A stretch of 64,000 bases of DNA from a virus (IMGVR_UViG_2597490325_000001:160001-224000), one strand, 5' to 3'; positions 3,068 to 64,000 are shown, counted from the stretch's first letter. Program-made: numbers and translations. Notes: generated from the sequence alone by a model not told the origin.

Positions 3068-3089
3068 TTTCTATGTTCCGAAGAAAAAG

Positions 3090-44606: not shown

Positions 44607-44714
44607 ATAAAAACTCCTTATAGTTTAACAATTATTTGTTGTAAGTATAATATTTTATATACTAGTTATTGATATATTATATTATTGATAGCTATTTTGT
44701 CTGAAAGGAATATT

Positions 44715-46148: not shown

Positions 46149-46150
46149 GT

Positions 46151-46828
46151 ATGAATAGTAAGGAATTTGATAAAATATTAAGAGAAAAATATAATCTCTT
46201 AGAATTTGAAGAATTGTCTGAGCTGACTGGTAAAGCTGTAAATACTGTTCAGAAAAGGATAAAGCTTCTTGGTTTAGAACCGGATTATACTTTAAGACAT
46301 AATCTGAAAAAATTCAAGCCCGTAATTTATAATGATATCATTTATAATAGATATCTGATAAGTAGAAAAGGGATTATACTAGATCTAAATAATAGAGGTA
46401 AAACGATTAAATATCGTATCAACTCTGGCGGTTATTATGTTTTTAATATAAAAGATAATGGAAAATTAAAAACCTTATTTTTACATAAGGTGATTGCTGA
46501 AGTCTATAAACCTAACCCTAAGCCGGGAATCTATAATACAGTCAATCATAAATCTGGAATTAAAACTGATTTCGATTTAGATAACTTAGAATGGACTACC
46601 CGTAAAGGTAATACTGATCATGCCTATGAAACCGGACTTATGGATTCTAAGATAGGTGAGAAAAGTAATTTTTCCAAATTCTCTAATGAAGAGATTAAGT
46701 TAGCTAAAAAACTTTTAGATCAATTTCCAGATATGTCTCCTTCAAAAATTAAGTCTACTTATAAACTTCCAATGTCGGCTAGTTATTTAACCGATATACG
46801 TAATGGTAGAAGGGTCAAATATACATAG
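46151..46828 (+). CDS. Free-standing HNH homing endonuclease
   Basis: Y.IS..G.I, GYY, LHKVIAEVY.PNP, VNHKSGIKTD....NLEW.T...N..HA. Confidence 0.85.
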   Translation: MNSKEFDKILREKYNLLEFEELSELTGKAVNTVQKRIKLLGLEPDYTLRHNLKKFKPVIYNDIIYNRYLISRKGIILDLNNRGKTIKYRINSGGYYVFNIKDNGKLKTLFLHKVIAEVYKPNPKPGIYNTVNHKSGIKTDFDLDNLEWTTRKGNTDHAYETGLMDSKIGEKSNFSKFSNEEIKLAKKLLDQFPDMSPSKIKSTYKLPMSASYLTDIRNGRRVKYT

Positions 46829-46997: not shown

Positions 46998-47753
46998 TTA
47001 TTTAGTTCTAGTCGGTTTGTAAGTACCGTTAGCCACATCTTTTAGATAAGGTTTATACTTAGTCGATCTAATATACATAATATTCTTAGGGTATTCTCTA
47101 TTAATCTGGAAGAAGGATTTACCATAGCCTTTTACAGCTACCTTTGATTTAGTAGAATACTTTTCAATATTATTGAACCACAAGTCAGGATTGCAACCCT
47201 TAGTATTTTTACAGATAGCTCTATCTTTTAGAATACCACCATAACCACCATTGTAGCAGCTGAACATCATAGCCATTCTATCTTCAGCCTTACCAGCCCA
47301 TTTTACCTGATTATAGCAAGTACGGTTCAATGTAAACATAGCAATAAACTGATAATATGGATCATAACGCTGAGACCATTCCCAATTCTTTAATTTAGCG
47401 TTCTGTTGTTTTAGACCAGTAAAGTTATTGAATTTAGAAGTGATAGTTATCTGAGGTATACCAAAACCATATTCTCTAGAGGTTTTAAGTTCTGTAGTAG
47501 GATTCCAGCACTTAGCTTTACTTGCACAAGATTCTTGTTCAGCTTGTCCAGCAAAATAATGAGAATTATGATTCATTGAAGGCCAATCATTAACAATGGC
47601 ATCTTTAAATGATGGTAAAGACTGCTTAAACTTAGTATCATTAATAACATCATAAGCTCTAGCATTACTCAGCATAGAAAGAAAAAGCATTGCACAAGCT
47701 ATTAGTGTAGTCTGTAAAAGTATTCTCCACCAATTTATTTTTTTCTTTTTCAT
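46998..47753 (-). CDS. Endolysin, lytic transglycosylase (SLT) with N-terminal signal/SAR segment
   Basis: Start likely 47753 (MKKKKINWW plus hydrophobic helix); GQAEQES catalytic Glu, GFGIPQ, YNGGYG, INREYP. Confidence 0.85.
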   Translation of the reverse strand: MKKKKINWWRILLQTTLIACAMLFLSMLSNARAYDVINDTKFKQSLPSFKDAIVNDWPSMNHNSHYFAGQAEQESCASKAKCWNPTTELKTSREYGFGIPQITITSKFNNFTGLKQQNAKLKNWEWSQRYDPYYQFIAMFTLNRTCYNQVKWAGKAEDRMAMMFSCYNGGYGGILKDRAICKNTKGCNPDLWFNNIEKYSTKSKVAVKGYGKSFFQINREYPKNIMYIRSTKYKPYLKDVANGTYKPTRTK

Positions 47754-47807
47754 TACTAATACCTTAAATTTAACGCTAAAAGGATTTTTCACCTTTTAGC
47801 GTTAGTT

Positions 47808-48158
47808 TTATACAATTTTCAACATATCCATCAGTTTCGCTAAGATAAAGATAATAGAAGCGAATACGATAGCTGCTGCAATAGGTTCTGTTTTTGCGGT
47901 ATTATACAGCTCTAATAGTGACATATCAGGGAAGAAAATACCTCTCAGGAAGTGCGCGAACCATACAGCTAGTACTGAGATAGCTACAGAGGTAAGTAAC
48001 CCACTAAACTGAGCAAAGTTATCATTTCCGCCACCATAAAGGAACAGACCCACAATTAAGAATACCGGAATAAAGTTAATTAGTTCTTTAGTCCAGTTTA
48101 CTTTAATTTCTGGTTTCTGGAAGTGCTTAAACTTCCTTTTACCAACTTTTTTTTCCAT
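47808..48158 (-). CDS. Putative holin (3 TM)
   Basis: Three hydrophobic helices, directly upstream of the endolysin; late promoter at 48188-48200. Confidence 0.65.
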   Translation of the reverse strand: MEKKVGKRKFKHFQKPEIKVNWTKELINFIPVFLIVGLFLYGGGNDNFAQFSGLLTSVAISVLAVWFAHFLRGIFFPDMSLLELYNTAKTEPIAAAIVFASIIFILAKLMDMLKIV

Positions 48159-48246
48159 CGGTTTTTCCTTAGTTAATCATGAAATAACTAAAGAACTGTT
48201 AGAAAATAAAACACCCCATATCCACTTTTAAGGATATGGGGTAAAT

Positions 48247-48519
48247 TTATTCTTTTTTCTTACTGAGTTCCGATTCAACTACTTCTTTAATCTCAGATTT
48301 CATATTATTTTCAACAATTTCATTAACTCTAGTAGTGAGCAAAGCGTAAGCATTTTCCAATTTTTTGATTAAACGATTAGCATCTTTAACTTTAATAGAA
48401 TCACTTTCACCAATAACATCTAGCAATAGTTTTACTTCCATCGCAGTTAATGGAACTGGAACGTCAGCATTTACAATAGCCAATTTGACGGAATCAGGTA
48501 ATTTGTCAATATCTGTCAT
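48247..48519 (-). CDS. Hypothetical protein
   Basis: ATGA overlap, aagga RBS. Confidence 0.65.
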   Translation of the reverse strand: MTDIDKLPDSVKLAIVNADVPVPLTAMEVKLLLDVIGESDSIKVKDANRLIKKLENAYALLTTRVNEIVENNMKSEIKEVVESELSKKKE

Positions 48520-49097
48520 TTAAGGAAATCCTTGTATTTAACTTGTTTGTAAGTATCTAACAATTTGTTTTTGTCATTAGAATTTTGTAAAATTTTACTT
48601 ATTTCTATTTTAGAATCGTTAATCTTACGAAGTAGTTTATTACGTAATTTAAGTATTTCTTTTATATCATTAAATGATAAAATAGTTACATTACCGTCTT
48701 CATTTTTAATTCTTAATGGCTCAAACTCTTCTGCTCCGAGATAGAAACAACTTTCAAGTAATTGGAATACTGGAGAAGAAATTCTTATTTCAGTTGCACC
48801 ATATGAAATTATATGGTTTTTGTTTATATCGTTGATACTTTCTATATGAAAATTAGCAATCTTCTCCTTCAGCTCACTAACATTAATATTTTCACTAAAA
48901 TGTACTACTTTAGGATTGCCGAAGTTATCAAACCCCATTTCGTATTCCGGAGACCTAGTGAGCTGTAGACAGAATCTCTTATAATCCCCTTCACTAATTT
49001 CTTTATACGGCTTAGGTACATTAACAGGTACAGGAATTATAGTTTTGTACAAACCTTTACTTTTAAGACTTACAAAGTAGTGATATTTTTGTTGCAT
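48516..49097 (-). CDS. Hypothetical, possibly fibre-assembly chaperone-like
   Basis: aaggt RBS; in the fibre cluster. Confidence 0.6.
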   Translation of the reverse strand: MQQKYHYFVSLKSKGLYKTIIPVPVNVPKPYKEISEGDYKRFCLQLTRSPEYEMGFDNFGNPKVVHFSENINVSELKEKIANFHIESINDINKNHIISYGATEIRISSPVFQLLESCFYLGAEEFEPLRIKNEDGNVTILSFNDIKEILKLRNKLLRKINDSKIEISKILQNSNDKNKLLDTYKQVKYKDFLK

Positions 49098-49150
49098 AAT
49101 TTACCTTAAAAAAGAAAAGCCCTATGGGTTTCCATAGGGCTTAATTTTAA

Positions 49151-49690
49151 TTAAATGGTAATAATGGCTACATCATCCCATCCGGTAGTATAATCATATA
49201 CGACCAAATCTTCAAAAGTAGTTACTTCGTTAATATCTTTAAAATGAGCATACTCTCTATTGAAAGCTCTTTGAATCTGAATTCTTGCGGCTTGTTGTAA
49301 AGCTTTAGCAGTAGAGATATCAAGTTCAATCCACTGAGTATTACTAACTTTCCAAGTCAAAGTATAGTGATTTAAACCACCAGATTCTGATTCATAAGAG
49401 GAGATTAAATCAGCTAAGCGACTCATATTAGTGTCAGTAGGACTAAAAGAACCTTCTTTAACACCAATAGGGGTAATCTGATAATTATAGCGATAAGTAG
49501 CTAAATTAGCAATTACTTCATTCTTAGCCTGATTAAGAAATTGATTAAAAGTAGCTTCTGCTACCGTAGCAATCTCCTTAGTATCCCAAATAGCGCCATC
49601 ATATGAATCAAACTGAGAAAATACTGGATTACCTTTGCTATTAATAATAGTAAATCCAGATTCCATAATATTAAGCTTTAAGATTTCCAT
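49151..49690 (-). CDS. DUF4376-like tail-fibre assembly chaperone
   Basis: L...K...I..L...RY......I; WK..N..WI.L; ...Q.AF.RE; terminal GW. Confidence 0.6.
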   Translation of the reverse strand: MEILKLNIMESGFTIINSKGNPVFSQFDSYDGAIWDTKEIATVAEATFNQFLNQAKNEVIANLATYRYNYQITPIGVKEGSFSPTDTNMSRLADLISSYESESGGLNHYTLTWKVSNTQWIELDISTAKALQQAARIQIQRAFNREYAHFKDINEVTTFEDLVVYDYTTGWDDVAIITI

Positions 49691-49699
49691 CTTTAACCC

Positions 49700-52600
49700 T
49701 TATAAATAATTACGCACAATACCAATTTTGGTAGGGGAATTAAACACTGAAGCTGAGCCAGCTATATATTTATTCATTTCATAGAATTTACCATCAACTC
49801 CATAATGGAGTAATGATTTAGATGCCGACAGATATGGAGACCAAAGTGCTGCACTAGCTATAGGTACCATATTGGCTGTATCTACTACTCTAAATTCTTT
49901 AGTATCTAAATTAAGAATATTTAATTGCCCGCCTAGGAACTTAGGAGTATAACCAGTATGAATAAATCCAGAAGAACTATCCTTAGAGGTATTTAGTTGA
50001 TTATAGAATAGAATTTCATTCTTCTCACAGTTAGGAATTCTTTCGGCAAAGTGAACCTCACAAAATTCATTCTTACCATTAGTAAGACCACGGAAATTTT
50101 GAATAAATGAGTACTCTACACTTACATCTTTATAAGTATTTGAAGAAATTGAATACTCATAAATAATTTTATTAGGATTCCCTAAGTCTTGGCGAAGAGA
50201 AGGTAAATCTACTTTATCGTCTACTAGTCCAATATACCCACCAAAGATAATAATCTTATCCTTATCTTTTCTGAAACAATTCCCCCAACCTATCCCATAA
50301 TTTGGTAGGCTAGCTATTAATGAGAAAGTATTGGTGTCTACATCATATACCATACAACGTTGGGTAGATAGGGAATTACTAGCAATATCCCAATATGGTA
50401 CTTTTTGAGCTGTATATCCGCCAAACATATACAATTTTCTCGTATCTTTGTCAAAATATGCAGCACCATTACCATATTGATAAGGCATAGTTGCTATCTG
50501 ACTTATGGTTTTAGTAGCCATATCAAATTTGTAAACAAACATATTAAATACATTATTTACATTACGACTATCTATATAGGATATACCATTTTCTGTAAAT
50601 TGTACTAAAGTCTTATTCTTTACGCCACCAACAATAATAGGATTTCCATCTCTATCAGAACAAGTTGCACCATATACAGAACTTAATTGAGAACTAGGAT
50701 AGAAAGTAAATTTCTCCGTCACTCTATTATAGATACCTATAATATTTTGAGGAGTAGTTGTATTATTTGGCGCTCTTGATTGTACAGTAAAAGTAAAGAA
50801 TATTGATGTATTATCATATTCATTACATGGTATAACCATAGGTGCCGTATAAATATCAACTAAACTTTCCCAACCTACAACATCATTGTATGCTCCAGTA
50901 ACATCAGTTTTAAATCCAGAAATAATTTTATCTCTATCTGGATGGTCAATCCTTTCAGAAAATTCTCGCTGATACAAGTGCGTGATGTAGATTCTTCCAT
51001 ACTTATCTACTGTACAACATTTATCGGAGTCAAGTTTAACTATACCATTTTGTGGATAGAAATTATTTCTACGAGTCAGAGATACAGTAATTTTACTGTT
51101 AACTAAATCATAATCCCAATGCCTACCAGTGTTATCTACTAAGCGAATAACATCTTTATTCAAATAGCTTGCGCCAACAATATAAGAATTAGATATAGCT
51201 GTAGATAAATCACTTAGAGATTTAGTTGTTACTGTACCAGTATTACTAATAATGGAAAAATTATTATTAGTAGTAGTATCTGGATGTAAACCATAAAATA
51301 CATAAGTATTTCCATTAAATGTATTTTCAGTTATATCGCCAGCAATAAAATCATATGGTAATGTAGTTAAGATTGACCAAGTAGTGCTAGTCAAATCATA
51401 TGCATATACATTCCGATTAAATGTTCCATCTGATTTAACCCCACCAATATACAGTACCTTATTATCCGGAGTTACTTTAGCTCTACCATATGCCACTGAT
51501 ATTGGTAGAGAGGTTATAGCAGCCCAAGTATCCGAATATGTAATCAGATCATTAGTGAAGAAACTATTTGATAAAACGCCTTCTTTATCACCACCTAAAA
51601 TAAATACTCTACCAGATTTAGAAACAGCCGTAGCTGCACCTTTTAATCCTTTTGTAAGTTTATCTACATTTAAAATAGTTTCAGTACCATAAGATACACT
51701 ATATTTAATTAATTTTGAACCATCAATTGGTGTACCGAAATCATTACTCTTACCAGTACTTAAGTAATAGAAATCACCTTTATACTTAAATGGTTGGTTG
51801 AAAGAAGAATATGTATTATCAGAAATCTCTCTTTCAACTACAATACCTGAGAAGGTGTCACTGGTATCATTATCTGGATAGTAAATAAATCCAACAGAAG
51901 GACGATTTAGATTTACTAATCCTTTAGTATTTAAGTACTCAGGTACTCCAGAAAAACTGTTTCCTCTATCTCCGCCAAAAATTGCTATCCTACCATCTTT
52001 AAGTGCAGCCATAGCGCAACTGGAACCGGCACTTAAAATGTTCTTATCTATAACCGATGCATTATTTGTAAGGTTTAATGGGGATTTATATGTCATGGTA
52101 CCTTTTGTTAAATCAAAGCATAACATATCTGCTACGTTGACATCCGATTCAAATTGCAATGGGACAGTAGTAGCAGTAGTACCTTCTTTTAACTGAGACA
52201 CCCAACCAGTGGTATACAATTTATCCTTAATTCTTACTATCTGACTGCCATCACCTGCAGCGATAGTATTAATCCATTTAGACCAAGTATTAGTAGCTAC
52301 GTCATATACTAAACCATAATTCCATTTACCATAAGCAGAAAATGAATTAGAAGCATTATCCTGTAATGGTAAATAAATTTTACCATTATAATAATGTAGA
52401 TATGTATTTCTCCAAGGATAATTACTACCAGACGAACCAGACGGCATTAATGAGGTAGGAATAGAAGCTAAGACTTCTACTGCTCCTAGAGTTACGTTGT
52501 TCGTATCAGACCCATAAATAATTTTTCTTCTACCAAAATGGTTTATTGCTACATCAGCTCCGTCAGGTGATGTAGTCCCAAATGGAATGTATACATATAG

Positions 52601-53608
52601 ATAATCATTTACATCATCATAAGTTACGCCATGACTTCTAAATAAGTAATTACTCCATTGACCAAGAATAACCCATTTTTGACCACCACTTACATTATCA
52701 CTAGTGTAAAGCAGTATGTCCCCAACAGTTTTCCACCACTGATTATTAGTATTTGCTTGATCACTATAATATGCACCCCCTCCTAATTGTAAGGCGCAGT
52801 TATTTTTTATAGCACAAAGCCTATGATTATTTACTGGATAAGGTAAATTAGAAGTTTCTCTAAAAGTCCTATCCGCTGGATTGAAGATGTATGATTTATT
52901 GGTAACTACTTTTGTCTGAGAAGTACTATATTCATCCAATACTAATACTGGATTGTAAAACCCTCCAGTTAGTAATACAGTACCATCTGTAAGAGTAACT
53001 GCTTCAGCATCAATCCATCCATTTAAGGGTAAATTGAAACTTTCATAAATTTTCTTAGACCCGTCTGTATATACAGCCCAAGGTTTAATTGTAGTAAATT
53101 GCGTAGGATCAATAATGTATGAAAGGGTTTCTAATGTGTCTTCAGACATTACAGCATCCACAATTACAGGTGCTGCAGCTATGACGTTTGATAAAGCTAA
53201 TGCTAAATATTCTATGCCATTATATACTACTGAAACTAGAGAATTCTGATAATTCTCATTATTTTCCATAGTATACTTTTTAACATACCCATTTACTACC
53301 TTTAAAGAGATTTTTACTTTATTACTTCCAGCAATACCTAATTTACCATCAATATAGATGTCTTTGTATAGGTTGCCTAGAATAATATATGAATAAGAGC
53401 TATTTTTAATAGAATTACCTAAAAATGTCTTAAGTTTATAGTTACCGCCAAATTTTACAGCTTTACCTTTAAAAATTTGGAAGAAAGATTGAGTTTTTAA
53501 ACTAGAGCTAGTAGGCTTACCAGAAGATAAGGTTCCGTCCTGATAATTTAATTTACCATCTATTAGTGCTCTGTTACTAAATCTTGCGGACTCTCTAGTC
53601 TGTGACAT
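49700..53608 (-). CDS. Giant Kelch-repeat (multi beta-propeller) protein 1
   Basis: Repeated hhhhGG...YD....W/F...LP Kelch blades (VLLTGG, IAIFGG, VFILGG, VLYIGG, LYMFGG, IIIFGG); late promoter at 53645-53657. Confidence 0.8.
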   Translation of the reverse strand: MSQTRESARFSNRALIDGKLNYQDGTLSSGKPTSSSLKTQSFFQIFKGKAVKFGGNYKLKTFLGNSIKNSSYSYIILGNLYKDIYIDGKLGIAGSNKVKISLKVVNGYVKKYTMENNENYQNSLVSVVYNGIEYLALALSNVIAAAPVIVDAVMSEDTLETLSYIIDPTQFTTIKPWAVYTDGSKKIYESFNLPLNGWIDAEAVTLTDGTVLLTGGFYNPVLVLDEYSTSQTKVVTNKSYIFNPADRTFRETSNLPYPVNNHRLCAIKNNCALQLGGGAYYSDQANTNNQWWKTVGDILLYTSDNVSGGQKWVILGQWSNYLFRSHGVTYDDVNDYLYVYIPFGTTSPDGADVAINHFGRRKIIYGSDTNNVTLGAVEVLASIPTSLMPSGSSGSNYPWRNTYLHYYNGKIYLPLQDNASNSFSAYGKWNYGLVYDVATNTWSKWINTIAAGDGSQIVRIKDKLYTTGWVSQLKEGTTATTVPLQFESDVNVADMLCFDLTKGTMTYKSPLNLTNNASVIDKNILSAGSSCAMAALKDGRIAIFGGDRGNSFSGVPEYLNTKGLVNLNRPSVGFIYYPDNDTSDTFSGIVVEREISDNTYSSFNQPFKYKGDFYYLSTGKSNDFGTPIDGSKLIKYSVSYGTETILNVDKLTKGLKGAATAVSKSGRVFILGGDKEGVLSNSFFTNDLITYSDTWAAITSLPISVAYGRAKVTPDNKVLYIGGVKSDGTFNRNVYAYDLTSTTWSILTTLPYDFIAGDITENTFNGNTYVFYGLHPDTTTNNNFSIISNTGTVTTKSLSDLSTAISNSYIVGASYLNKDVIRLVDNTGRHWDYDLVNSKITVSLTRRNNFYPQNGIVKLDSDKCCTVDKYGRIYITHLYQREFSERIDHPDRDKIISGFKTDVTGAYNDVVGWESLVDIYTAPMVIPCNEYDNTSIFFTFTVQSRAPNNTTTPQNIIGIYNRVTEKFTFYPSSQLSSVYGATCSDRDGNPIIVGGVKNKTLVQFTENGISYIDSRNVNNVFNMFVYKFDMATKTISQIATMPYQYGNGAAYFDKDTRKLYMFGGYTAQKVPYWDIASNSLSTQRCMVYDVDTNTFSLIASLPNYGIGWGNCFRKDKDKIIIFGGYIGLVDDKVDLPSLRQDLGNPNKIIYEYSISSNTYKDVSVEYSFIQNFRGLTNGKNEFCEVHFAERIPNCEKNEILFYNQLNTSKDSSSGFIHTGYTPKFLGGQLNILNLDTKEFRVVDTANMVPIASAALWSPYLSASKSLLHYGVDGKFYEMNKYIAGSASVFNSPTKIGIVRNYL

Positions 53609-53714
53609 AGTAAGATTACCTTTTATTTATCTTATATAAAAGAACTAAAAAGTTGTTCGTAAATAAAAGTCCCCTAATAAGACATGATGCTTATTAGGGG
53701 GTAACTTTAAATTA

Positions 53715-56700
53715 TTAAGATATTACAACAAACATACCTAATCCGTTTATGTAAACGGATTTATTTAGACGACTACCAAACATTCCTGGAAGAACAATTA
53801 TTTTACCTGACTTAAGCTCAAACATTTCTGGATAAGCTGAGTCATCTGAAGAAAAAATACCTGTAGATGTAGAAAGGGCTGTAGTTACAGGAGCTATCAT
53901 TTTATTTGCTTCAATAGGTACACTAATAAGCTGCCAAGGAATACCGGTATTATACTTCTTATTATAAGGATTGAAAATACCAGCCGTTATAGTTGATTTA
54001 GTTTCTACCCAAGGGAAAATATAGAAGTTACCATTACTATGTTTAATACCGGTTAAGTTAATATAAGTAGGTCTTACTCTACCAGATTCAAGTAAAGCTG
54101 CTGGTATAACTGATTCACTCTTAGTAAGATCAATAGTTTTAAATAACCCATTGGCATCGGCTTCGTCAGTAGTATTAGTTAATGTATCAAAAACAGTTAC
54201 CTGATTATTGAGTATCTTACCAGTATTCCCCATAGCATCAGGTGATAAATTATCTGAACTAAAGCAGAAAAGCGTACCGTTATCAGCAACAGCCGCATAA
54301 TTTCGGAAAGGTGAAATTGCCATATCAGGGTTATCAGTAATTGATAATTTACCTAAGTATGTTAAGGTATTGGCTGAAATACTATATTTAAATACTTTGT
54401 TAAAACAAGTGTTTGCATGATAATCTGTAACAGTACTCCAATATTTATACCCACCAAATATCAAAATCTCATCAGGGTTATTAGTCAAAGATATCATAGT
54501 GCCATTGATAAATTTAACATTAACACTTAATGGATTATTAATATAAGTTGGCTGCTTCTCAGTATAAGTATTAGTAACTGGATCGAAGATAGTTAAAGTA
54601 CTTCTCATGTATTTGATAGGGTTAGTTTGTAAATCAGTAGAAGCGCTACTGAGATCCCATAAACCTCCAATTAAAACAATTCTTCCATCTGGTAGGGTCT
54701 TAGCTACACCATTTGACCAGTTTTGACATAAAGAAGAAGGTATAGTATCTTCTTGCCAAGTACCTAAAGTAAATAAACCATCTGAATTTTCAGTAACTTT
54801 AGCTTTCCAATGACTATTAACGAAAACAGATTCACCAGACTTAGCCCCTCCACTAATTACCCCGCCAAAATAATGTATATTATCATTAGAATCTAAAACT
54901 TTAGTACTGGCTGTTATAAAAATATCATTTGTTTCAGTACGATTACCTAAAGTAAATACAGGGGAAATCCCAAATGAAGTAAATTTAATTTTAGGTTTAT
55001 ATGCAGCATTAATGAATTTAAAAGGAGGAGTAACTGAAATTGAACCATTAGATCCTTTAACCATACCAAATGGTATATAAAATTCACCTTTAGGCGTTTT
55101 AACTAGATCGGCTAATGCAAAACATCTAGTTTGCGTAACCATTTCAAATTTATTAGTATCAATATAGTATTTAAATACTAAGGTACCACTATAATTTTTA
55201 GCTCTACCAGCATACAAAACAATCTCATTTGTGTTGATTTTGGTAGCTCGCATCCACCCTTCTGATTCAAATTCAATAGGAATGGATTGTAATTGAGTAT
55301 AGATAGGGGTTAGATAAGTGTCACCTTTATTTACTAAAGATAGCTTGAAGGTCTCAGATGAATAAACTTTATCGCCATTTTCATCAAAAGTAGTACCGCC
55401 GAATACAATGCATTCAGTATCAGATATAGATACTAAAGCTGAACCATATTTAGCATACTTCTCTAAAGGTATTGAACTGCCGCTACTCTCAATTAAATCA
55501 TGGTAACGAGTGACACTGTTACTTGTAACTGAATAAACTCCATATCCTGAAGATTTATTCAATGACATTTCATCTTTACCACCAATCATATAGAATACAT
55601 TTTGAGTAGAATTATAGAAATAATTGCCATATTCTCTCAATATTCTGTTATTATCATTAGAAGTATAGAAATTGTCTTTGAAATAAGGTTTGCCAGCAGT
55701 CCAAGTTATACCAGAATCTGGAGAATAAAAATAGAATAATGTACTCTTGTTCAGAGTTCTATCACTGGAATCTGCAGCATCTTTAGTGCCAGCCGTACTA
55801 CCTAAGAGAACTAACGAATAACCAGTTATACTGTTAAAATTATTAATTTTCTGTAGAGAAAATTCAGATGGATCAGTTGCACTATAAATAGTATTCGCTT
55901 CATCATCGAAATCTATAGCCGCTCCACCTTTCATATTAAGTCTATAATTAACCACTGCTGGAACTGGTGAAACTGTCCAAGTATATTTAACTGTATCAAA
56001 TAAATAGGCAGTTTTATTCTTTTCAAGAATAGTATAAACTTTATTGCTAGATGTACTAGCTGATTGAGTATTATACCAGTTCGCTACAGGGGTATTTGGT
56101 ATAGTGCAATTGTCATTTAATGGAATTAATCTAGATAAAACATTTGGGTTAGTTGCTATTACACTCTTATTAAAATCTACAATCATAGCATGATTAGAAT
56201 GCATTAAACCTGTAGATATCTTATTATCAGGATCAGAAAAGAAGAAAGATTCCCCTTCACCATAATTTACACAACCACCAGCAAGAATAACTCGTTTATC
56301 TTTAAAAATACCTATACCGTTACATACAAAGCCTGGGTATGGTAATTTTTCTCTATAGTAATAATCTTTAGTATTAAAATCTATTTCAATAATATCTCTA
56401 AATGCAGAAGTATAGTAAGCTCCATTACCAGTTCCGGTAACAGTGGGTATTGTAGTAAATTCCCCACTTACGCCAGTAAACATTATAAGTTTATTATCAT
56501 TTATAGGAGAACGAATAATCTTTGGCACCGACAGGAAGAAATCAAAGCTCATAAACTTTGTAATTTCTTCAGTAGCTACATCAAATTTATATAAAACTGT
56601 ACCTTTATGGTTGTTTCTAAAAATACCAGCAGTAAATATTATACCATTTAGCTCCGGTAGATATACAGATGAATTAAATGAATCCTGATCGAAGGCAGTA

Positions 56701-57833
56701 GGATTTGCAACGTTTTCATTAAATACGGCTGTATATTTATTAGCTACATAAGTTTCTTCACCAGTCAATAAATTATATTTATATAACCCAAAGAAAGGAA
56801 CCATTGTAGTCGGAACAGAGTTTACATAAGCAGTTTCTCTGCCACAAAAGACATAAATTGTATCATTTACTATACAGGCTGCAGTGGAAAAGAATTGATG
56901 AGATACAGGTATTCTTTCATATGTATCATTTTCTATATCATGTATATAGAAATAACTACCACCGACTACGGGAATCCCTATTGAGCGCACCCCATAGTTT
57001 ATGATCATATTTTTACCAGGCTTGTACTCTACAGTACTAGACATATACAAAGCTTCTGGGAAGGGAGCCATTTCTCTCCAACTATTTGTCTCTGGATTGT
57101 ATTCGAAAACATTATTGCAACCAGTTTCACTAGAGAATCCTATTTCATTAGGATATGTTAAACCAGTAGCTAATCCATTCTCACCAGCACAACCAGGATA
57201 AAGATAAAATTTATTATTTTTTGAGTTAACTGTACCGGATACATTTCGCATAGCCATACCAATTTTAGGAATGTCTGGTATGCTACGGAACATAGAATTA
57301 CTCAAAAAAGTACTTACTGAATATGATTCATATTCAGTAGATTTTAATGTAACTACTTGTGATGAATCAGATACAACAGCTTCCAGTATATAGCTTCCTA
57401 AAGCATCAAATTTTAAGCCTATATAAGATTTATCACCTTTAGTAACATCTACTAAAGTAATTTTAAATGCTACAGAGAAGAAAGAACCTTCTTTAATATA
57501 GTCATTTGATTTGTTATATGCAAAATCAAATGTAGCTGAATCTGCATAATCATCATTTACAAAGTTAATCTTACCTGAGAATGTAAAGTCTTTACTTGTT
57601 TCAGCAAGTATAAGAATATCGTTTACATCTGAGATAACACCTTGTACTTCAAATTTAAAAGTAGTGGAATTTTTTAGTGCTTCTGCATTACTTCCACTAA
57701 GTAACACCGATGCGAATTCTTTGGGGTCTATGTCTAGCTCACCTGTATAAATATTACCTTTCTTATCAGCTTTCAGGTTATTGCCAGAGATTATTTGTCT
57801 ACTAAACTTAGTAGATTTTCTGGATAAAGACAT
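53715..57833 (-). CDS. Giant Kelch-repeat protein 2
   Basis: VFEYNPETNSWREMAPFP, VILAGG, FYMIGG, CIVFGG, IVLIGG, ILIFGG; late promoter at 57862-57874. Confidence 0.8.
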   Translation of the reverse strand: MSLSRKSTKFSRQIISGNNLKADKKGNIYTGELDIDPKEFASVLLSGSNAEALKNSTTFKFEVQGVISDVNDILILAETSKDFTFSGKINFVNDDYADSATFDFAYNKSNDYIKEGSFFSVAFKITLVDVTKGDKSYIGLKFDALGSYILEAVVSDSSQVVTLKSTEYESYSVSTFLSNSMFRSIPDIPKIGMAMRNVSGTVNSKNNKFYLYPGCAGENGLATGLTYPNEIGFSSETGCNNVFEYNPETNSWREMAPFPEALYMSSTVEYKPGKNMIINYGVRSIGIPVVGGSYFYIHDIENDTYERIPVSHQFFSTAACIVNDTIYVFCGRETAYVNSVPTTMVPFFGLYKYNLLTGEETYVANKYTAVFNENVANPTAFDQDSFNSSVYLPELNGIIFTAGIFRNNHKGTVLYKFDVATEEITKFMSFDFFLSVPKIIRSPINDNKLIMFTGVSGEFTTIPTVTGTGNGAYYTSAFRDIIEIDFNTKDYYYREKLPYPGFVCNGIGIFKDKRVILAGGCVNYGEGESFFFSDPDNKISTGLMHSNHAMIVDFNKSVIATNPNVLSRLIPLNDNCTIPNTPVANWYNTQSASTSSNKVYTILEKNKTAYLFDTVKYTWTVSPVPAVVNYRLNMKGGAAIDFDDEANTIYSATDPSEFSLQKINNFNSITGYSLVLLGSTAGTKDAADSSDRTLNKSTLFYFYSPDSGITWTAGKPYFKDNFYTSNDNNRILREYGNYFYNSTQNVFYMIGGKDEMSLNKSSGYGVYSVTSNSVTRYHDLIESSGSSIPLEKYAKYGSALVSISDTECIVFGGTTFDENGDKVYSSETFKLSLVNKGDTYLTPIYTQLQSIPIEFESEGWMRATKINTNEIVLYAGRAKNYSGTLVFKYYIDTNKFEMVTQTRCFALADLVKTPKGEFYIPFGMVKGSNGSISVTPPFKFINAAYKPKIKFTSFGISPVFTLGNRTETNDIFITASTKVLDSNDNIHYFGGVISGGAKSGESVFVNSHWKAKVTENSDGLFTLGTWQEDTIPSSLCQNWSNGVAKTLPDGRIVLIGGLWDLSSASTDLQTNPIKYMRSTLTIFDPVTNTYTEKQPTYINNPLSVNVKFINGTMISLTNNPDEILIFGGYKYWSTVTDYHANTCFNKVFKYSISANTLTYLGKLSITDNPDMAISPFRNYAAVADNGTLFCFSSDNLSPDAMGNTGKILNNQVTVFDTLTNTTDEADANGLFKTIDLTKSESVIPAALLESGRVRPTYINLTGIKHSNGNFYIFPWVETKSTITAGIFNPYNKKYNTGIPWQLISVPIEANKMIAPVTTALSTSTGIFSSDDSAYPEMFELKSGKIIVLPGMFGSRLNKSVYINGLGMFVVIS

Positions 57834-57920
57834 AATTTGTTTTACCTTTTTATGAAAAGATCTAAATTTTTGTTAAAAAATATTGACCTTATACCATTTC
57901 TGGTATAAGGTCAATAATTG

Positions 57921-60707
57921 TTAAGGTTTGTAAGTCATAATAATGTTTTTGGCTAAACCATCATTCAGACTTACATATTTGTAAATAACGCTAAATGCTG
58001 ATCCGGTAGAATAATTCACAAATCCATAAAGTGCAGCAGTATTCTTTATTAAGTCCATTACAAACTGAGATGGATGAGGGATAACGGTATACGAATCATC
58101 TACTAAATTGTACTTAATAGCCCGTTCATAGTTAAGGATAAACATCTCATTTGGGTTTGTAGCCGATAAACACCCAGCAGTATATCTGGCGTCCGGATAT
58201 AATTTTCCAGTATCAGTCCAAGTATTAGTTAAAATATTATAGTATATCTTCCTATTAGGTTGATCGTTTAAGGTATTAAATACATATATTCTTTCATTTA
58301 CATTATCGTAAACAAAAGCAGTGGTACGTATTTTATATGGGCAGTCAGCCATTCTAGTTACAGAATCTGTAGCTGGATTATAACAATAAAGTCTTTCAGA
58401 AGTTGAAGAGTAACCTATACCTTTGGCTTCATTATTACAAAGCCCATAAAAAATTCTTCCATCATTAATTCTTACTGCACTACCATCAGCAAAAGCAATA
58501 CCTAGATTTTCTACCGATACATTAGATAATGACCATGTATTAGTAGAAAGATTTAGTTTATAAAAACGAGAAGACATTGTATCGCTCCAGCTAGTTGGAT
58601 AATTACTTGGTCTTCCATAACCACCTAACATTATCATTTCATTAGGACTACATGGTACTAGAGGGACTTGACCGCCTGGAAATAACTGATTGTCGGATAA
58701 TCTATTTATTCCAGTAGATTTTTTATACGAATACCAACGTTTACTAGAATACATGCAATTATTAGTATAATCGAACCCATAAAACCCTCCAAACAGTAGA
58801 TTACCGTTTGCATCTCTTCCCATACATTCACTTATATAATCTATATAGTTTGCAGTTGCAGCAGATGTGTTATCCTTTAAATCCGCTGAAGAATCATATA
58901 CGTTCATAATACTGGAGGGGATGATCGCATCTATTTCCCAAACGCCTAAAGTGTTATAGTGATACTTGTTGTCATCATAGAAGAAGAAAGACTGACCCGT
59001 TATATTTTGAGTAGTTACTTTAGTGGTACTATTATATGATGGAACGATAGAAGGTTGTCCTATCATTAATCTGCCATCATTTAATTTAGTGGATGGACAA
59101 ATAGCTAAACTAATTGGTGCAGAAGATAGAGCTGAGAAGGTTTTGGTAGTATGATCATAGATAGTCATAGCTAAGTTTGTATTAGCGTAATTGTCCCTAT
59201 TTAGATAAGAATTAAAGTTAACACCTGGTTTATATCCACCGATTATAGCCACTCTATTATCAGATAACTTCTCTAATACAGGTACAGTACATTGTAATGG
59301 ATTTCCAGTTACAGGAGTGAATAGATATGAATTCATATCCCAAATATAGTTTTTAGGGTTATTGTATAGATCTCCGCCATTGAATGCACACGAATCAAAT
59401 GCATGAACAAAGAAAAGATTGTCTACAAGATGTACTACTCTCATATCAAAATTACTAAATACCGTGTCTGATCTAGGAATAAAGTAATTAGCAGTATCTT
59501 TACCAGCCTTAGTCCATTTCTTAGTTTCGGTATTATAAATAAATGGATATCTATAGTATGGTCTATATGTGTTGACATCAATTGATGTATTAAGTGCAGA
59601 GTTATAGCCCAACACCCCACCCATAATTACAATATTTTTTCCATCCGGATGGATAGCTAGACCATACTTATCCCATCCACTTACTGTAGGCGATTTAGTT
59701 TCTATAGACCATAATTCAGTTTTAGGGGAATATCGATAAACGTATTTAGGGTAAGGCCTTAACTCATTTAGTATAGCTGGCGTAAGGTTCTGATTGGGAA
59801 TAGTGGCTCCCGCAATAACACTATAACCGAAGAATACCAGTACATCACCATCTGCCAACGTGACACATTTTGAGTTATTAATCGGGAACCAAGGAAATCT
59901 AGCAGTTTTTCTCATTTCTCCAGTGTATGGGTTGATGATCCATGCATTATTCCAAGTTTTTAAAGTTCCGCCTCCCAAGCCACTAGCACCGTTAGAGTTG
60001 TTCCCTGCAGTACTATTAGCCGCTGGCGAATCCATTTCTAAGAAGAATACATTACCATCTTTTAAAGTAGTCATGTTAGTCATGCCTGGAGCGACATGTA
60101 ACATGTTCATTTCCACAGTATCCCATTTAGAATTACTAATATTATTTTTATAAATTACTGATTTACTTCCAATGAAATCAGAAGTCGTAATAGTTATATC
60201 AGTAGTTTCTATAGAAACTGAAATAAATCCAGAGAAATATACTTCTGCATCCACAGTGGTTTCAATCTGAATAGCCACCCAAGTTTTACTTTGATAAGTA
60301 ACGAACATTACCGTATCATTACTGGAAGCATTTTCTAAATTAGCTCTTGCAATAGAGCTAACGCCTATATTTGCACAAGTGCTAAAAGTCCTAATTTTAT
60401 TAGTATTATCTTTAATAATAAAATCGCCATCAATTACAAAAACACCTGAATCTACAGGAGTTAATAGAATATAATGGAAACCATTTCTAGCAGTCATTGA
60501 GATAGTTTTACCAATAAACTTATTATTAAATTCATAAGTATTACTTGCAATGGTAGCAGTACCTCCGGCAGAGATAAAGTCAGCTACCATTTTATCATTT
60601 GTGTATTCGGCATTATTAGAAGCTAATAAATTATTATCCACTTTAGTTAAAGCGTCATATTTTACTATTCTACCAACGTTCTTAGCTATCTGTCTTGTCT
60701 TAGACAT
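57921..60707 (-). CDS. Kelch-repeat protein 3
   Basis: TTLKDGNV, VTLADGDVLVFFG, IVIMGG, VAIIGG, YCYNPATDSVTRMADCP; late promoter at 60748-60760. Confidence 0.8.
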   Translation of the reverse strand: MSKTRQIAKNVGRIVKYDALTKVDNNLLASNNAEYTNDKMVADFISAGGTATIASNTYEFNNKFIGKTISMTARNGFHYILLTPVDSGVFVIDGDFIIKDNTNKIRTFSTCANIGVSSIARANLENASSNDTVMFVTYQSKTWVAIQIETTVDAEVYFSGFISVSIETTDITITTSDFIGSKSVIYKNNISNSKWDTVEMNMLHVAPGMTNMTTLKDGNVFFLEMDSPAANSTAGNNSNGASGLGGGTLKTWNNAWIINPYTGEMRKTARFPWFPINNSKCVTLADGDVLVFFGYSVIAGATIPNQNLTPAILNELRPYPKYVYRYSPKTELWSIETKSPTVSGWDKYGLAIHPDGKNIVIMGGVLGYNSALNTSIDVNTYRPYYRYPFIYNTETKKWTKAGKDTANYFIPRSDTVFSNFDMRVVHLVDNLFFVHAFDSCAFNGGDLYNNPKNYIWDMNSYLFTPVTGNPLQCTVPVLEKLSDNRVAIIGGYKPGVNFNSYLNRDNYANTNLAMTIYDHTTKTFSALSSAPISLAICPSTKLNDGRLMIGQPSIVPSYNSTTKVTTQNITGQSFFFYDDNKYHYNTLGVWEIDAIIPSSIMNVYDSSADLKDNTSAATANYIDYISECMGRDANGNLLFGGFYGFDYTNNCMYSSKRWYSYKKSTGINRLSDNQLFPGGQVPLVPCSPNEMIMLGGYGRPSNYPTSWSDTMSSRFYKLNLSTNTWSLSNVSVENLGIAFADGSAVRINDGRIFYGLCNNEAKGIGYSSTSERLYCYNPATDSVTRMADCPYKIRTTAFVYDNVNERIYVFNTLNDQPNRKIYYNILTNTWTDTGKLYPDARYTAGCLSATNPNEMFILNYERAIKYNLVDDSYTVIPHPSQFVMDLIKNTAALYGFVNYSTGSAFSVIYKYVSLNDGLAKNIIMTYKP

Positions 60708-60799
60708 AGATAAATCCTTCGTATTAGATTTTCTTTATATAAATATACTAAGAAATTGTTAAAGAACCCCTATAACTTTCATAAGTTATAGGGGTCTTA

Positions 60800-61486
60800 T
60801 TAGTTATCACCAAACATTGAAACAGGTTTTTCAGGCCATACAATTGTAGAAGGATCTACAGTAGAGATTTTATAAACTGCAATACGATATTTCTTCCATT
60901 CAGCCAATTTAGCTTCAACAGCTTCAATATCATCAGCCATTTCAAAGTCAAGCATATCTTGATAAATATTGATATGCTCAAGGGCTTCAGACATCAGAGT
61001 CTGTTTAGTTTTGTTAGCTGCATCGATAGATGCTTGTAGTTTCTTGTTTTCATTGACTACCCACTTAGCACCATCCCACTCATCAAATTCTGAAGTAGGG
61101 GCTAAAAGAGTAAATCCAGTAGGAATATCACCGAAAGAAGTAACCACTTTAGGGGTTTTATCAGTGGTATTATAGATAGTATAGCCTCTATAATCAATTA
61201 CAATCTGCCAACCTTTATAGTCTACTGCACGCAGAATAGCTTGAGGTACACCTGCAGCTACTTTCTGTTTATATTCAGCAAACGGAGGTAAATCCCGATA
61301 AGCATAAGCCGCTACAGTAACACCTACAGGTACATACTCACGGTTACTACCAATATATTCTCTGGTAGTAGAGTGAATATTATAAGTACCCACATAACCT
61401 TCTTTAATACAAAAACCATTACCATCGAAAACAGCTTTGGTCATAGAATCAGGAATGGTTACTTCTTGAAAAATATCAGTTGCCAT
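60800..61486 (-). CDS. Tail fibre assembly protein (Tfa-like)
   Basis: T.EYIGS..EYVP.G, DYRG..Y.T, G.IP.GFTLLAP.SEFDEWDG.KW, L.EWKKYR, I.WPEKP. Confidence 0.9.
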   Translation of the reverse strand: MATDIFQEVTIPDSMTKAVFDGNGFCIKEGYVGTYNIHSTTREYIGSNREYVPVGVTVAAYAYRDLPPFAEYKQKVAAGVPQAILRAVDYKGWQIVIDYRGYTIYNTTDKTPKVVTSFGDIPTGFTLLAPTSEFDEWDGAKWVVNENKKLQASIDAANKTKQTLMSEALEHINIYQDMLDFEMADDIEAVEAKLAEWKKYRIAVYKISTVDPSTIVWPEKPVSMFGDN

Positions 61487-61498
61487 TAAGCTTCTCCT

Positions 61499-63613
61499 TT
61501 ATTTGGCCCTAATAATATAGTTAAATGCAATATTTCGTGGTCTATTTTCATTAGCTGTTGGTACACCACTCTTAGATGCATCAAATGTGAAACCTGAAAC
61601 TCCCCCACCAGCTCCACCACCCCCACCAGAGGAATGTGAAAATCCTGTTCTAATAATATCTAATGCACCTTCATTTGCCCATTTAAATAAATCCGCTGTC
61701 GAAAATGGTTCATCTGAAGAAGAAAGAACGTTTAATTTACCAGTAATATTTCGAATAGCATCCCCCTGATTGGTCAAAATATTTCGTCCAGTATCTACAT
61801 TTCTACCATCGTCCCAACCACGGATAAATTCTCCACGAAGATCAGGTAGGACTCCAGATGGGTAATAGTTTAATAATTTAGGGAAAGCTACCTGATCAAA
61901 AGCACTACCATTAGCTTTCAAAAAGTTTTTAGGTGGAGTTGCTAATGGATAAGGAATTGGTACGCCTATAGGAAGTAAGAGATTATTTGAGAAATCTGTA
62001 TCAGAAAATATTGTAACCCATCCGCTACTAGTGCCATCAGCTCTTAAACAGATAGCAAATACTTGACCTGAAAAATCAACGGCTATTGCAGATTTAGAAT
62101 TTGACCCACCATGATCCATTAAAAGAATATCAGAATATTGTCCAGAAGGTATTCCATTTGTATATGATGAAGAATCACCAAATCTATACATACCGGAAGG
62201 AGCATTTTTTAAAAAAGCAATTAAGTCTTTACCCTCACCAGAAAAAGGTACTCCTGAGCCACCCAAACCAAACGCTCCAACTTGCATCAAACTGCCTGAA
62301 GTGGTATCGGTAATGTTAGTTTGAGCAGTTTTCTGAGCAGCACTACCTAATTCAAGATTAGTACGAGCTATTGATTTATCTGTAAGATCTTTTAAGTTTT
62401 TATCTTTCTGAGCAGCACCAGTAATGCGGCTATCGTCACCTGCAGCAACTGTACCTGTTTCCGTACCAACATTTTTGGTAGCTGAATCACCTAAACCTAG
62501 ATTAGTTCTAGCTTTGGCTTTATCTTTAATATCAGATAAATTATTTTCAGTACCTAATGCTTTTAATTCATTAAGAGTAGGTAAGTTATTTGCCAGATAT
62601 ACCTTGGATAACTCAACTCCGTCAGCGCCATCAATACCTAAAGATAATACGCCATCAGAAGATAAAACTAAATACCCTGTAAGAGTTTTAGATATAGGGA
62701 AAGATAGAACCCCATAATCTTTATCTACTTCAGGTTTATCCGGAGAGTCATCAGTTAATTGGTAGAAAGCGGGTATTACTGATTTAAGCGCAGCAACTTT
62801 ATTATCATTTATACCTAAACCACCATCACCTACAACAATTACATTACCTTTAGCAGTACCTTTATTTAATACAGATGCTGTTCCAAGACCTAGATTTAAC
62901 CTAGCAATTTCCTTATCATCGTCATCTACAATTTCTGAGAAAAGATTTGAGATTTGGAAGAAGGTATCTTTAGCCGTTTCTTTTGAATATACATTCAAAT
63001 CATTTAAGTTAGGTTTATGTTTATCCGTATAAATACTTTCTACAGCAAAAGTTCTAGAAGATGTTCCATAAGAACATCTTAAAACATATGAAGCTTTTTC
63101 ATTAGCTAAGTCTGATACAAAGGCAATAAAACCACCTTTACTGGAAGTACCTGTAGCCATTACATTAATAACTACATTAACGCCTAAGTCTAGGCCAACC
63201 GGAATATTGGTTGCGGCAGCTTTTGCTAATACAATAACTTCATTAGATTTAAATTTATAAGTATTGAAGTCTAACGCTGAAATAATAGTAGATTCTTCTA
63301 AGAAACTATTAAAATCACCTACAGAATATAACTGTCCTTTATCTGTACCCGATTCTTTAAGAGCTGCACTCTTAATTCCTAGATTTTCTCTAGCTTTTGC
63401 TTTATCTGAAATTTCTTCCAAATTACCTTCAATAGTTAAGAAAGTACTTGCTGCTTCAGATGGAGAAATTACAGTTCCATCCCCTTGCTTATAAAATATA
63501 GCCTTTTTATCACCAACTAAGAATAATTCTCCCGGATAAATTCCGGTAATTTCTTCAGAGTTTAAGTTAGGTATAGTTCTAAGAACAAAGGCTATCCTAC
63601 TTAAGTTTGCCAT
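61499..63613 (-). CDS. Tail fibre protein with collar domain
   Basis: NL.D..DK..AR.NLGL repeats, GTVAAGDDSRITGA, collar PIGVPIPYP..PDLRGEFIRGWDDGR, ENRPRNIAFNYI; late promoter at 63660-63672. Confidence 0.9.
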   Translation of the reverse strand: MANLSRIAFVLRTIPNLNSEEITGIYPGELFLVGDKKAIFYKQGDGTVISPSEAASTFLTIEGNLEEISDKAKARENLGIKSAALKESGTDKGQLYSVGDFNSFLEESTIISALDFNTYKFKSNEVIVLAKAAATNIPVGLDLGVNVVINVMATGTSSKGGFIAFVSDLANEKASYVLRCSYGTSSRTFAVESIYTDKHKPNLNDLNVYSKETAKDTFFQISNLFSEIVDDDDKEIARLNLGLGTASVLNKGTAKGNVIVVGDGGLGINDNKVAALKSVIPAFYQLTDDSPDKPEVDKDYGVLSFPISKTLTGYLVLSSDGVLSLGIDGADGVELSKVYLANNLPTLNELKALGTENNLSDIKDKAKARTNLGLGDSATKNVGTETGTVAAGDDSRITGAAQKDKNLKDLTDKSIARTNLELGSAAQKTAQTNITDTTSGSLMQVGAFGLGGSGVPFSGEGKDLIAFLKNAPSGMYRFGDSSSYTNGIPSGQYSDILLMDHGGSNSKSAIAVDFSGQVFAICLRADGTSSGWVTIFSDTDFSNNLLLPIGVPIPYPLATPPKNFLKANGSAFDQVAFPKLLNYYPSGVLPDLRGEFIRGWDDGRNVDTGRNILTNQGDAIRNITGKLNVLSSSDEPFSTADLFKWANEGALDIIRTGFSHSSGGGGGAGGGVSGFTFDASKSGVPTANENRPRNIAFNYIIRAK

Positions 63614-63750
63614 ATTAGTTTATCCTGTGTAATAAATAGTCAATGATTTTCATTGTCAACTATTAAAGTGTTGAATAGAATTAATTAGAATTTATTGAAA
63701 AATATCTCCCCTATAGCCTTAAGAGATTATAGGGGAGATATTAATTATTA

Positions 63751-64000
63751 TTATGCAAAGGGTGGTAAAGGCCATTGGTTGGCAGAGGGATGTATATAAC
63801 CTCTATTATCATGTGCATCATCAATTATCCATTGAGGCACAGATGGTAAAGGCATATCCCACCAATTATCAAGAGTGGGCCAAGTTTTAAAAGCTATACG
63901 TGTAGAAGTAACTTCTTCTTTCTGTTTATCAGTTAAAAGTGTGTCATTAATAGTGTAGTCAGAAAGCATCATTACATCTGTAGCTCGAATAAAGGTATTA
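63751..64000 (-). CDS. Partial tail-fibre assembly chaperone-like protein (start beyond the window)
   Basis: Frame open to the window edge: NTFIRATDVMMLSDY...R..F..WP. Confidence 0.6.
   Translation of the reverse strand, partial: NTFIRATDVMMLSDYTINDTLLTDKQKEEVTSTRIAFKTWPTLDNWWDMPLPSVPQWIIDDAHDNRGYIHPSANQWPLPPFA

Follow-up and report, generated by a model that had tools for sequence, protein, structure and literature searches.

The described systems closest to the locus considered here come from jumbo phages. In phiKZ, gp131-gp135 are tandem paralogues with a common N-terminal region, from which a hetero-hexameric fibre base is built on the baseplate, according to PMC13250141, which, citing Sycheva 2012, places a C-terminal seven-bladed propeller of gp131 at the distal fibre end and gives its proposed role as host recognition. 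The same phage encodes gp298, a 335-amino-acid (aa) Kelch/NanM-like virion protein of low abundance that, as described in a 2025 preprint (PMC12676376), is needed for adsorption to some wild strains and not to PAO1. In the Pectobacterium jumbo phage CBB, the CBB phage paper describes three Kelch-like genes (CBB_550, 552, 554), one product of which is in the virion, and discusses their proteins as candidates for hair-like extra tail appendages. Here we analyse a comparable array of three giant Kelch genes, g296, g295 and g294, in a 64,000-nucleotide stretch of viral DNA (IMGVR_UViG_2597490325_000001:160001-224000, hereafter the window), which comprises bases 160001-224000 of a 262,391-bp genome of 32.5% G+C. 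The source is the Yersinia jumbo phage phiR1-37: the two open reading frames (ORFs) upstream of g296 agree with the published g298 (704 aa) and g297 (228 aa; PMC13030884), and BFVD entries of 928, 1372 and 1302 aa match the g296 model, the 928-aa entry being 100% identical to g296. We propose, giving it about an even chance, that the three proteins are accessory, strain-specific binders of the host surface, displaying their propellers on the virion at the tail periphery.

Part of this picture was in place beforehand. In Table S2 of PMC4848604, g294-g296 make up the only three rows named 'Kelch'; g294 and g295 are listed there as virion structural proteins, and g296 is entered as 'Kelch-like protein 12' in the group 'diverse', with no virion-protein flag in that table. 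The virion presence assumed by the original prediction, a reading of this DNA from its sequence alone, is thus upheld by the table for g294 and g295 and not for g296. The CBB phage paper likewise refers to Kelch-like proteins in giant Pseudomonas and Yersinia phages, with a citation of Skurnik 2012. The Kelch nature of all three genes and the virion presence of g294 and g295 are therefore already known, and to call the system possibly undescribed, as that prediction did, was too strong, given that the phiR1-37 proteins had been cited and tabulated and that phiKZ gp131-135 and gp298 had been described. The present analysis adds an N-terminal domain restricted to the family, a domain count for g296, the conservation of the three-gene array and a hypervariable block with sharp bounds that extends into g293.

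The three paralogous ORFs are borne out at the sizes first proposed (1302, 1372 and 928 aa; about 11 kb), as follows:

57921..60707, minus strand: g296, 928 aa; N-terminal domain and, as modelled, two six-bladed propellers (about residues 195-588 and 585-928)
53715..57833, minus strand: g295, 1372 aa; N-terminal domain and probably three propellers
49700..53608, minus strand: g294, 1302 aa; N-terminal domain and probably three propellers

First, all three proteins contain Kelch repeats, as had been claimed. Pfam Kelch_6 scores 60.5 bits in g294 (E 1.2e-16), 41.7 in g295 (E 1e-10) and 47.5 in g296 (E 1.4e-12), in each case above its gathering cut-off of 25.3 bits, and Kelch_4 and Kelch_1 likewise exceed their Pfam cut-offs in g294 and g295. 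PHROGs adds a single family, of function unknown, for the 1302-aa g294. In sequence searches of the PDB, g294 has one weak Kelch match (E 7e-4) and the g296 family profile has no match. An AlphaFold2 (AF2) model of g296, built from a 4-sequence alignment, contains 47 strands between residues 211 and 927. Its best solved Foldseek matches are the double-propeller proteins BT4663 (E 2e-13), tricorn and AIP1; its best non-self match is the BFVD model of g295 (E 4.3e-22 over 1132 columns), and proteins of other jumbo phages (virion, Kelch and fibre) are among its best viral matches. Fold prediction thus agrees with the expectation of Kelch-type propellers rather than other folds.

Most Kelch domains consist of six four-stranded blades, and how many such units would each protein hold? 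VIA-align splits the g296 model into two domains, at about residues 195-588 and 585-928. The first superposes on six-bladed Kelch propellers, with ESP at the top (5gq0; Z 25.4, root-mean-square deviation (rmsd) 3.5, 303 residues aligned) and KLHDC3 (Z 23.3), YjhT/NanM (2uvk; Z 23.0) and Keap1 (Z 21.8) among the others. The second matches the six-bladed sialidase 1dil (Z 20.1, rmsd 3.8, 302 aligned); NHL domains and lactonases tie with it to within about 2 Z units, which leaves the generic six-blade fold as all that the sialidase rows share. In this low-confidence model, g296 comprises the N-terminal domain and two six-bladed propellers. Blades in the two larger proteins were located with a blade hidden Markov model and hhalign: 8-10 are recognisable in g294, in three groups at 207-582, 664-753 and 986-1168, and 5-10 in g295, again in three groups, at 205-623, 747-780 and 1048-1221. 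Past the N-terminal domain, g294 has 1117 residues and g295 about 1190, which is 3.0 and 3.2 times the approximately 367 residues per propeller of g296. Because the remaining lengths are about three times that of a g296 propeller and the blades fall into three groups, g294 and g295 probably carry three six-bladed propellers each. Of the two, three and three propellers originally counted, the two thus have a model behind them, albeit a low-confidence one, and the others lengths and blade positions.

Might one or more of these propellers be sialidase-, NanM- or galactose-oxidase-like enzymes whose substrates are sugars of the host surface, so that a glycan layer is cleared or modified as the phage adsorbs? 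The fold matches do include YjhT/NanM, several sialidases (Z 18-20) and a galactose-oxidase homologue, and Pfam NANM matches locally and weakly. However, the 2uvk match ties with many other Kelch propellers, NANM (PF24996) reaches 25.7 bits in g294, 15.8 in g295 and nothing in g296 against a cut-off of 45, and the PDB sequence searches match no enzyme. Sialidases carry several copies of the Asp-box, S/T-x-D-x-G-x-T/S-W/F/Y, a pattern that occurs once in one of the 11 family proteins. This sole Asp-box-like motif, at g295 residues 704-711 (window 55722-55745), is not conserved in the orthologue from the uncultured relative L001 introduced below. With NANM below its cut-off and the Asp-box in one of 11 proteins, membership in the sialidase or NanM family is rejected; the glycan binding or processing raised by the original prediction finds no direct support, and we consider an enzymatic function quite improbable.

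Second, the propellers follow an N-terminal domain, encoded as follows:

60123..60707, minus strand: N-terminal domain coding region of g296, about residues 1-195; conserved in 3 orthologues
57294..57833, minus strand: N-terminal domain coding region of g295, about residues 1-180; profile match at residues 1-160
53054..53608, minus strand: N-terminal domain coding region of g294, about residues 1-185; linked by hhalign to both other families

BLASTP among the three proteins returns blade-level matches only and leaves the N-termini unaligned. When the first 185 residues were compared by Smith-Waterman alignment against 1000 shuffles, the g294-g296 pair gave z 5.3, a score reached by none of the 1000, and the g294-g295 pair z 3.2, reached by 7 of the 1000; both alignments start at residue 1. 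Likewise, hhalign of orthologue profiles of 4, 2 and 5 sequences joins g294 with g296 (probability 81%, E 1.2e-5, 159 columns) and g294 with g295 (probability 75%, E 2.6e-5, 151 columns, within columns 1-158). A family-specific, beta-sandwich-like N-terminal domain is therefore likely common to g294 and g296 and to g294 and g295. Since only the pairs with g294 match, g295 and g296 are linked transitively through g294, and a domain shared by these two is unproven; the common domain of about 180 aa originally proposed for all three thus holds for two of the pairs.

The reach of this domain is narrow. A profile of the three N-terminal domains searched against 1.84 billion representative proteins gave only 8 matches, of which seven are proteins of 936-1372 aa matched from residue 1 to about 160 and the eighth is a 51-aa fragment. 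The domain, all-beta as modelled and about 160-190 aa long, is thus restricted to this small family. Pfam scans of six N-terminal domains returned nothing below E 0.03, the best PDB sequence match of the domain profile has E 0.46, and the ESM Atlas held neither a usable match for the g294 domain nor a model of it. In the AF2 model of g296, the domain opens with a helix (4-17), which is followed by two short strands and then by eight strands at 56-165; in an AF2 model of the g294 domain, a helix at 3-13 and two short strands precede a strand region at 50-59 (50-53 and 55-59) and seven strands at 72-154, so that the elements of secondary structure come in the same order in the two models. Among solved structures, the g294 domain model fits best on the beta-sandwich at the C-terminus of a tailspike from an Acinetobacter phage (6c72; Z 6.1, rmsd 3.3, 102 residues), ahead of three similar Acinetobacter phage tailspikes (Z 5.2-5.5) and then carbohydrate-binding modules and pilins (Z 4-5). 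In BFVD, the same model had six non-self matches at E 0.001 or better (2.5e-5 to 9e-4), of which three bear a name (tail, tail-repeat or YomR-like protein), and g295 came at rank 10 (E 2e-3). As the fold matches are weak, we name no fold family for the domain.

Third, the array diverges from its relatives far more than its surroundings do. For g296 there are three metagenomic orthologues, at 38, 38 and 35% identity; for g294, two at 37-42% and one 97% variant; for g295, only variants of 93 and 87%, plus the copy in L001. The close variants, the metagenome-derived proteins P0007, P0008 and P0012 (g294 97% identical, g295 93 and 87%), come from near relatives of the phage, and their substitutions are concentrated at residues 100-400 of g294 and at residues 300-600 and 900-1200 of g295. 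The relative that allows a comparison along the whole region is a 21-kb uncultured IMG/VR contig (L001/L002), which is syntenic, with ORFs of 734, 173, 693, 226, 958, 1365, 1311, 180 and 193 aa, and which keeps the gene order. Protein identity between L001 and phiR1-37 is 100 and 91% in the two upstream genes, 69, 61 and 76% in the fibre genes g300, g299 and g298, 88% in the chaperone gene g297, 35, 33 and 35% in g296, g295 and g294, 51% in g293, and 92, 83, 97 and 91% in the four downstream genes. In the DNA, the trough is bounded sharply:

49512..60667, no strand: divergent block against the uncultured relative by blastn, beginning near codon 14 of g296 and ending near codon 60 of g293, about 11.15 kb

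DNA identity of 85-94% stops about 40 nucleotides into g296 and resumes, at 81%, in g293 after about 60 codons; inside the block, blastn finds only short patches of 50-417 bases that are 65-82% identical. With 33-35% protein identity where the backbone has 83-100%, the block is evolving far more quickly than the genes around it, and its trough is deeper even than that of the proven receptor-binding fibre g298. Determinants of host range often evolve fast. The block ends inside g293 (49512-49690, its first approximately 60 codons), where the lowest 30-aa window, residues 31-60, is 33% identical, which suggests that g293 co-varies with g294.

The array itself is old: its architecture is conserved, its orthologues are full-length and collinear, and its three members are old paralogues. 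A recent tandem duplication is rejected, because the paralogues are barely alignable to each other and each has a full-length orthologue in the relative. As for copy number in related phages, the same three-gene array is found in the sole relative compared, L001/L002, the viral-contig scans having yielded this one contig. Scans of metagenome contigs with the queries A3 and P0004 gave no match, nor did a viral-contig scan with P0004. Phage records were equally sparse in relatives: megablast of 49000-62000 against them gave no match, and in a tblastn search of 50,697 phage records, among which the record of phiR1-37 itself is possibly not included, g294 (E limit 1e-5) and g295 (E limit 0.1) had no match and g296 (E limit 0.1) had one weak match over 23% of the query.

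The setting of the array is that of a tail-fibre cluster:

61499..63613, minus strand: g298, collar tail fibre, 704 aa; phrog_523, PF07484
60800..61486, minus strand: g297, Caudo_TAP tail-fibre assembly protein, 228 aa; PF02413, E 2e-21
49151..49690, minus strand: g293, 179-aa DUF4376 protein; PF14301, E 9e-10

The Kelch genes lie directly behind two fibre-chaperone pairs, and the matches to Collar, Caudo_TAP and DUF4376 agree with the position first described for them, between a collar fibre with its Tfa protein and a DUF4376-like gene. The DUF4376 gene is g293, which also has weak matches to PHROG tail and tail-fibre families. Two collar-type fibres, g298 (window 61499-63613) and g300 (genome 224274-226469, just beyond the window), are alike in their N-terminal approximately 50 residues, with 40% identity between g298 and the g300 orthologue, and each fibre has its own downstream chaperone-like gene; these similar residues are probably a common attachment segment. 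Elsewhere, the window holds split multisubunit RNA-polymerase genes, an NAD-dependent ligase and virion proteins, the nearest GenBank relatives of the latter being in AR9/PBS1-like Bacillus and Staphylococcus jumbo phages. Further from the array, an ORF for an HNH endonuclease (244 aa; 46094-46828, plus strand) overlaps the 3' end of an ORF for a Dda-like helicase (44685-46148, plus strand; its listed start is TTG), an arrangement that may be a homing-endonuclease insertion. Two minus-strand genes at 41525-42202 and 39264-40151, about 1.4 kb apart, are paralogues in phrog_12252 (unknown function; E 3e-82 and 3e-88).

Each of the three Kelch genes is its own transcription unit, with these elements:

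60766..60795, minus strand: hairpin between g297 and g296, 13-pair stem
60748..60760, minus strand: AACA-N6-TAG motif before g296, position kept in relative L001
57881..57916, minus strand: terminator-like hairpin between g296 and g295, 16 pairs and then a T run
57862..57874, minus strand: AACA-N6-TAG motif before g295, position kept in relative L001
53671..53700, minus strand: terminator-like hairpin between g295 and g294, 11 pairs and then a T run
53645..53657, minus strand: AACA-N6-TAG motif before g294, position kept in relative L001
49117..49142, minus strand: terminator-like hairpin 3' of g293

Upstream of each Kelch gene lie a GC-rich hairpin plus T run and, nearer to the gene, a single AACA-N6-TAG motif at 29-41 nucleotides from the start codon, the layout of one motif per gene and of separating hairpins that the earlier reading had reported; L001 has it before each of its Kelch genes, and g298 shows the same arrangement. 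Neither g297 nor g293 has a motif, and they start 12 and 9 nucleotides, respectively, past the preceding gene; given these short gaps and the lack of a motif of their own, g298-g297 and g294-g293 are probably co-transcribed pairs. Within the window alone, the motif does not exceed chance (19 found, 14.4 ± 3.8 expected); genome-wide, 56 of its 69 copies are intergenic and at most 120 nucleotides upstream of an ORF on the same strand, a placement more frequent than chance would give, intergenic DNA being only 8.6% of the genome. Terminator-like hairpins number 16 in 47000-64000, against 6.7 ± 2.8 in shuffles. The motif resembles the AR9 late-promoter consensus, of the AACA-N6-T(A/T) type that serves the phage RNA polymerase in AR9-like phages.

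In the RNA-seq Table S2 of PMC4848604, the expression pattern of g294-g296 is 'NO', that is, not temporally regulated, and the label 'late' that the promoters had been given is therefore unsupported. Total gene reads for g294-g296 in the same source are about 4300-4500 early, 3050-3150 middle and 5100-5900 late, given there with no gene-length normalisation, beside early, middle and late counts of 943, 675 and 2307 for the major capsid gene, 992, 669 and 1626 for the sheath gene and 2568, 1977 and 3827 for the portal gene. On this scale, which takes no account of gene length, the g294 and g295 counts are similar in magnitude to those of the capsid, sheath and portal genes. PMC4848604 assigns an antisense RNA, misc_9 (genome 217,379-217,553), to the 'middle part of g295'; its actual place is window 57379-57553 on the plus strand, opposite g295 codons of about 94-152, in the part that codes for the N-terminal domain. 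That it falls within the 1372-aa ORF (genome 213715-217833) also agrees with the identification of the phage as phiR1-37. A perfect palindrome lies at 57314-57340, just downstream of misc_9 in the reading direction of g295.

Could transcription from the early time points on, together with the class 'not regulated' (PMC4848604), point to work inside the cell? The proteins might be carried in the particle and delivered, or act as cytoplasmic adaptors that target host proteins, as the Kelch proteins of eukaryotes and poxviruses do, and the best solved matches of the first g296 propeller are indeed substrate-recognition Kelch domains (KLHDC2, KLHDC3, Keap1 and KLHL12). Yet Pfam finds no BTB or other adaptor domain, the genes sit within a cluster of fibres and chaperones, the 'constitutive' class as given in PMC4848604 also covers 48 of the 70 virion genes of phiR1-37, and proteins of 100-150 kDa built of rigid propellers would be unlikely ejection cargo. 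We regard such an intracellular role as highly improbable.

How, then, might the proteins act as accessory binders of the host surface? Each would consist of a short N-terminal helix, the all-beta N-terminal domain and then two (g296) or probably three propellers. The N-terminal domain would fix the protein to the particle, presumably at the tail periphery, and the propellers may bind structures of the host envelope; the result would be a secondary or strain-specific adsorption beside that of the primary complex, Gp298-Gp297. This complex of Gp298 and its chaperone Gp297 is the experimentally shown receptor-binding complex of phiR1-37, which binds the lipopolysaccharide of serotype O:3, and in purified form it cut plaques from 35 to 2 on the O:3 host, as reported in PMC13030884.

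Several results weigh against our proposal. Since infection of the O:3 host is blocked by purified Gp298-Gp297 on its own, primary receptor binding on that host does not fall to the Kelch proteins, and g296 carries no virion-protein flag in the published table (PMC4848604). Confidence in the g296 model is low, with a mean predicted local distance difference test score (pLDDT) of 58, a predicted template modelling score of 0.45 and residues 1-62 below 50; the g294 domain model has a mean pLDDT of 57.5, with residues 70-175 at 61-81 and residues 1-69 below 50. Nor is the likeness of the two N-terminal domain models independent, since the alignment for g294 held rows from the g296 and g295 families. 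All fold matches of the domain (Z at most 6.1) lie under Z 8, the level at which the tool's scores become meaningful, and g296 is not among the top 50 BFVD matches of the g294 domain model. Between g295 and g296, the N-terminal domains are not significantly similar (z 0.6, reached by 268 of 1000 shuffles), and hhalign finds no match between the profiles of the two. Fibres usually combine a conserved anchor with a variable tip; among the orthologues here, conservation of the N-terminal domain exceeds that of the propellers only slightly in g294 and g296, and in g295 it does not exceed it.

If Gp298-Gp297 already accounts for primary receptor binding, might the Kelch proteins be virion decoration or scaffold, there to adorn or stabilise the head, tail or baseplate or to attach to surfaces in the environment, with no part in host choice? 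That g294 and g295 are published virion proteins with high transcript counts (PMC4848604) would fit, as would the CBB Kelch proteins, one of them in the virion, that the CBB phage paper treats as candidates for hair-like tail appendages. A structural part, however, would be expected to be as conserved as its neighbours, whereas the Kelch genes are the most divergent in the region, and they lie inside the fibre gene cluster. We consider this explanation unlikely.

A bolder extension of accessory host-surface binding, which we judge decidedly doubtful, is that the three N-terminal domains co-assemble into one hetero-oligomeric base, so that a composite appendage would carry up to eight different Kelch propellers, that the 11-kb block from g296 codon 14 to g293 codon 60 is exchanged between related phages as a single host-range cassette, and that g293 is its matched partner or chaperone. 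Functionally, such a base would correspond to the one that gp131/133/134/135 form for the phiKZ fibres, to which it has no detectable homology.

The value of these results is limited, since earlier publications had already listed the genes, recognised them as Kelch-like and recorded two of the products in virions. Still, Gp298-Gp297 is the one host-binding component that experiments have addressed in phiR1-37, a studied candidate for biocontrol of Yersinia enterocolitica. Should the Kelch block be a second device for adsorption, and a fast-evolving one, it could account for the graded plating and adsorption seen with other Yersinia serotypes, and the sharp trough of 33-35% identity inside an 83-100% backbone offers a clear and testable handle.

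Set beside the known systems, the array resembles phiKZ gp131-135 in three respects: both are tandem paralogues in a jumbo phage with a multisubunit RNA polymerase, both have an N-terminal region common to paralogues (which in phiKZ docks to the baseplate), and in both a beta-propeller is the proposed distal, host-binding part. Sequence homology to gp131-135 or to gp298 is nevertheless rejected, as hhalign detects none: an 11-sequence N-terminal domain profile reaches a probability of 0.08% against the N-termini of gp131/133/134/135, and the family profiles at most 0.8% against the C-terminus of gp131. With phiKZ gp298, a Kelch virion protein too, the proposed role of an accessory, strain-specific adsorption factor is shared; gp298 differs in having a single propeller and no N-terminal domain and in not lying beside tail genes, and its similarity to the phiR1-37 proteins is confined to the level of single blades (best BLASTP E 0.002 over 54 aa; hhalign at most 1.6%). 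The resemblance to the phiKZ systems is therefore one of organisation and fold class, not of family membership. In CBB, likewise a jumbo phage, three Kelch-propeller genes are clustered, and one of its Kelch-like proteins matches the fold of the g296 model (template modelling score 0.63, normalised on the target), but the matched protein, unlike g296, is a single propeller of 285 aa; tblastn of g294, g295 and g296 against the 50,697 phage records gave no CBB match. Eukaryotic and bacterial Kelch propellers (ESP, KLHDC2/3, Keap1, KLHL12 and YjhT/NanM) superpose on the first propeller of g296 with Z 21-25 over 257-308 residues; the phiR1-37 proteins differ from them in their sequence (10-15% identity), in having no BTB or BACK domains and in chaining two or probably three propellers behind an orphan domain. 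Where phiKZ gp131 has one seven-bladed propeller, the phiR1-37 chains would carry two or probably three six-bladed Kelch propellers, and, if the proposed role is true, a second jumbo-phage lineage, AR9-like and not phiKZ-like, would be using propeller-tipped paralogues with a common N-terminal domain for adsorption.

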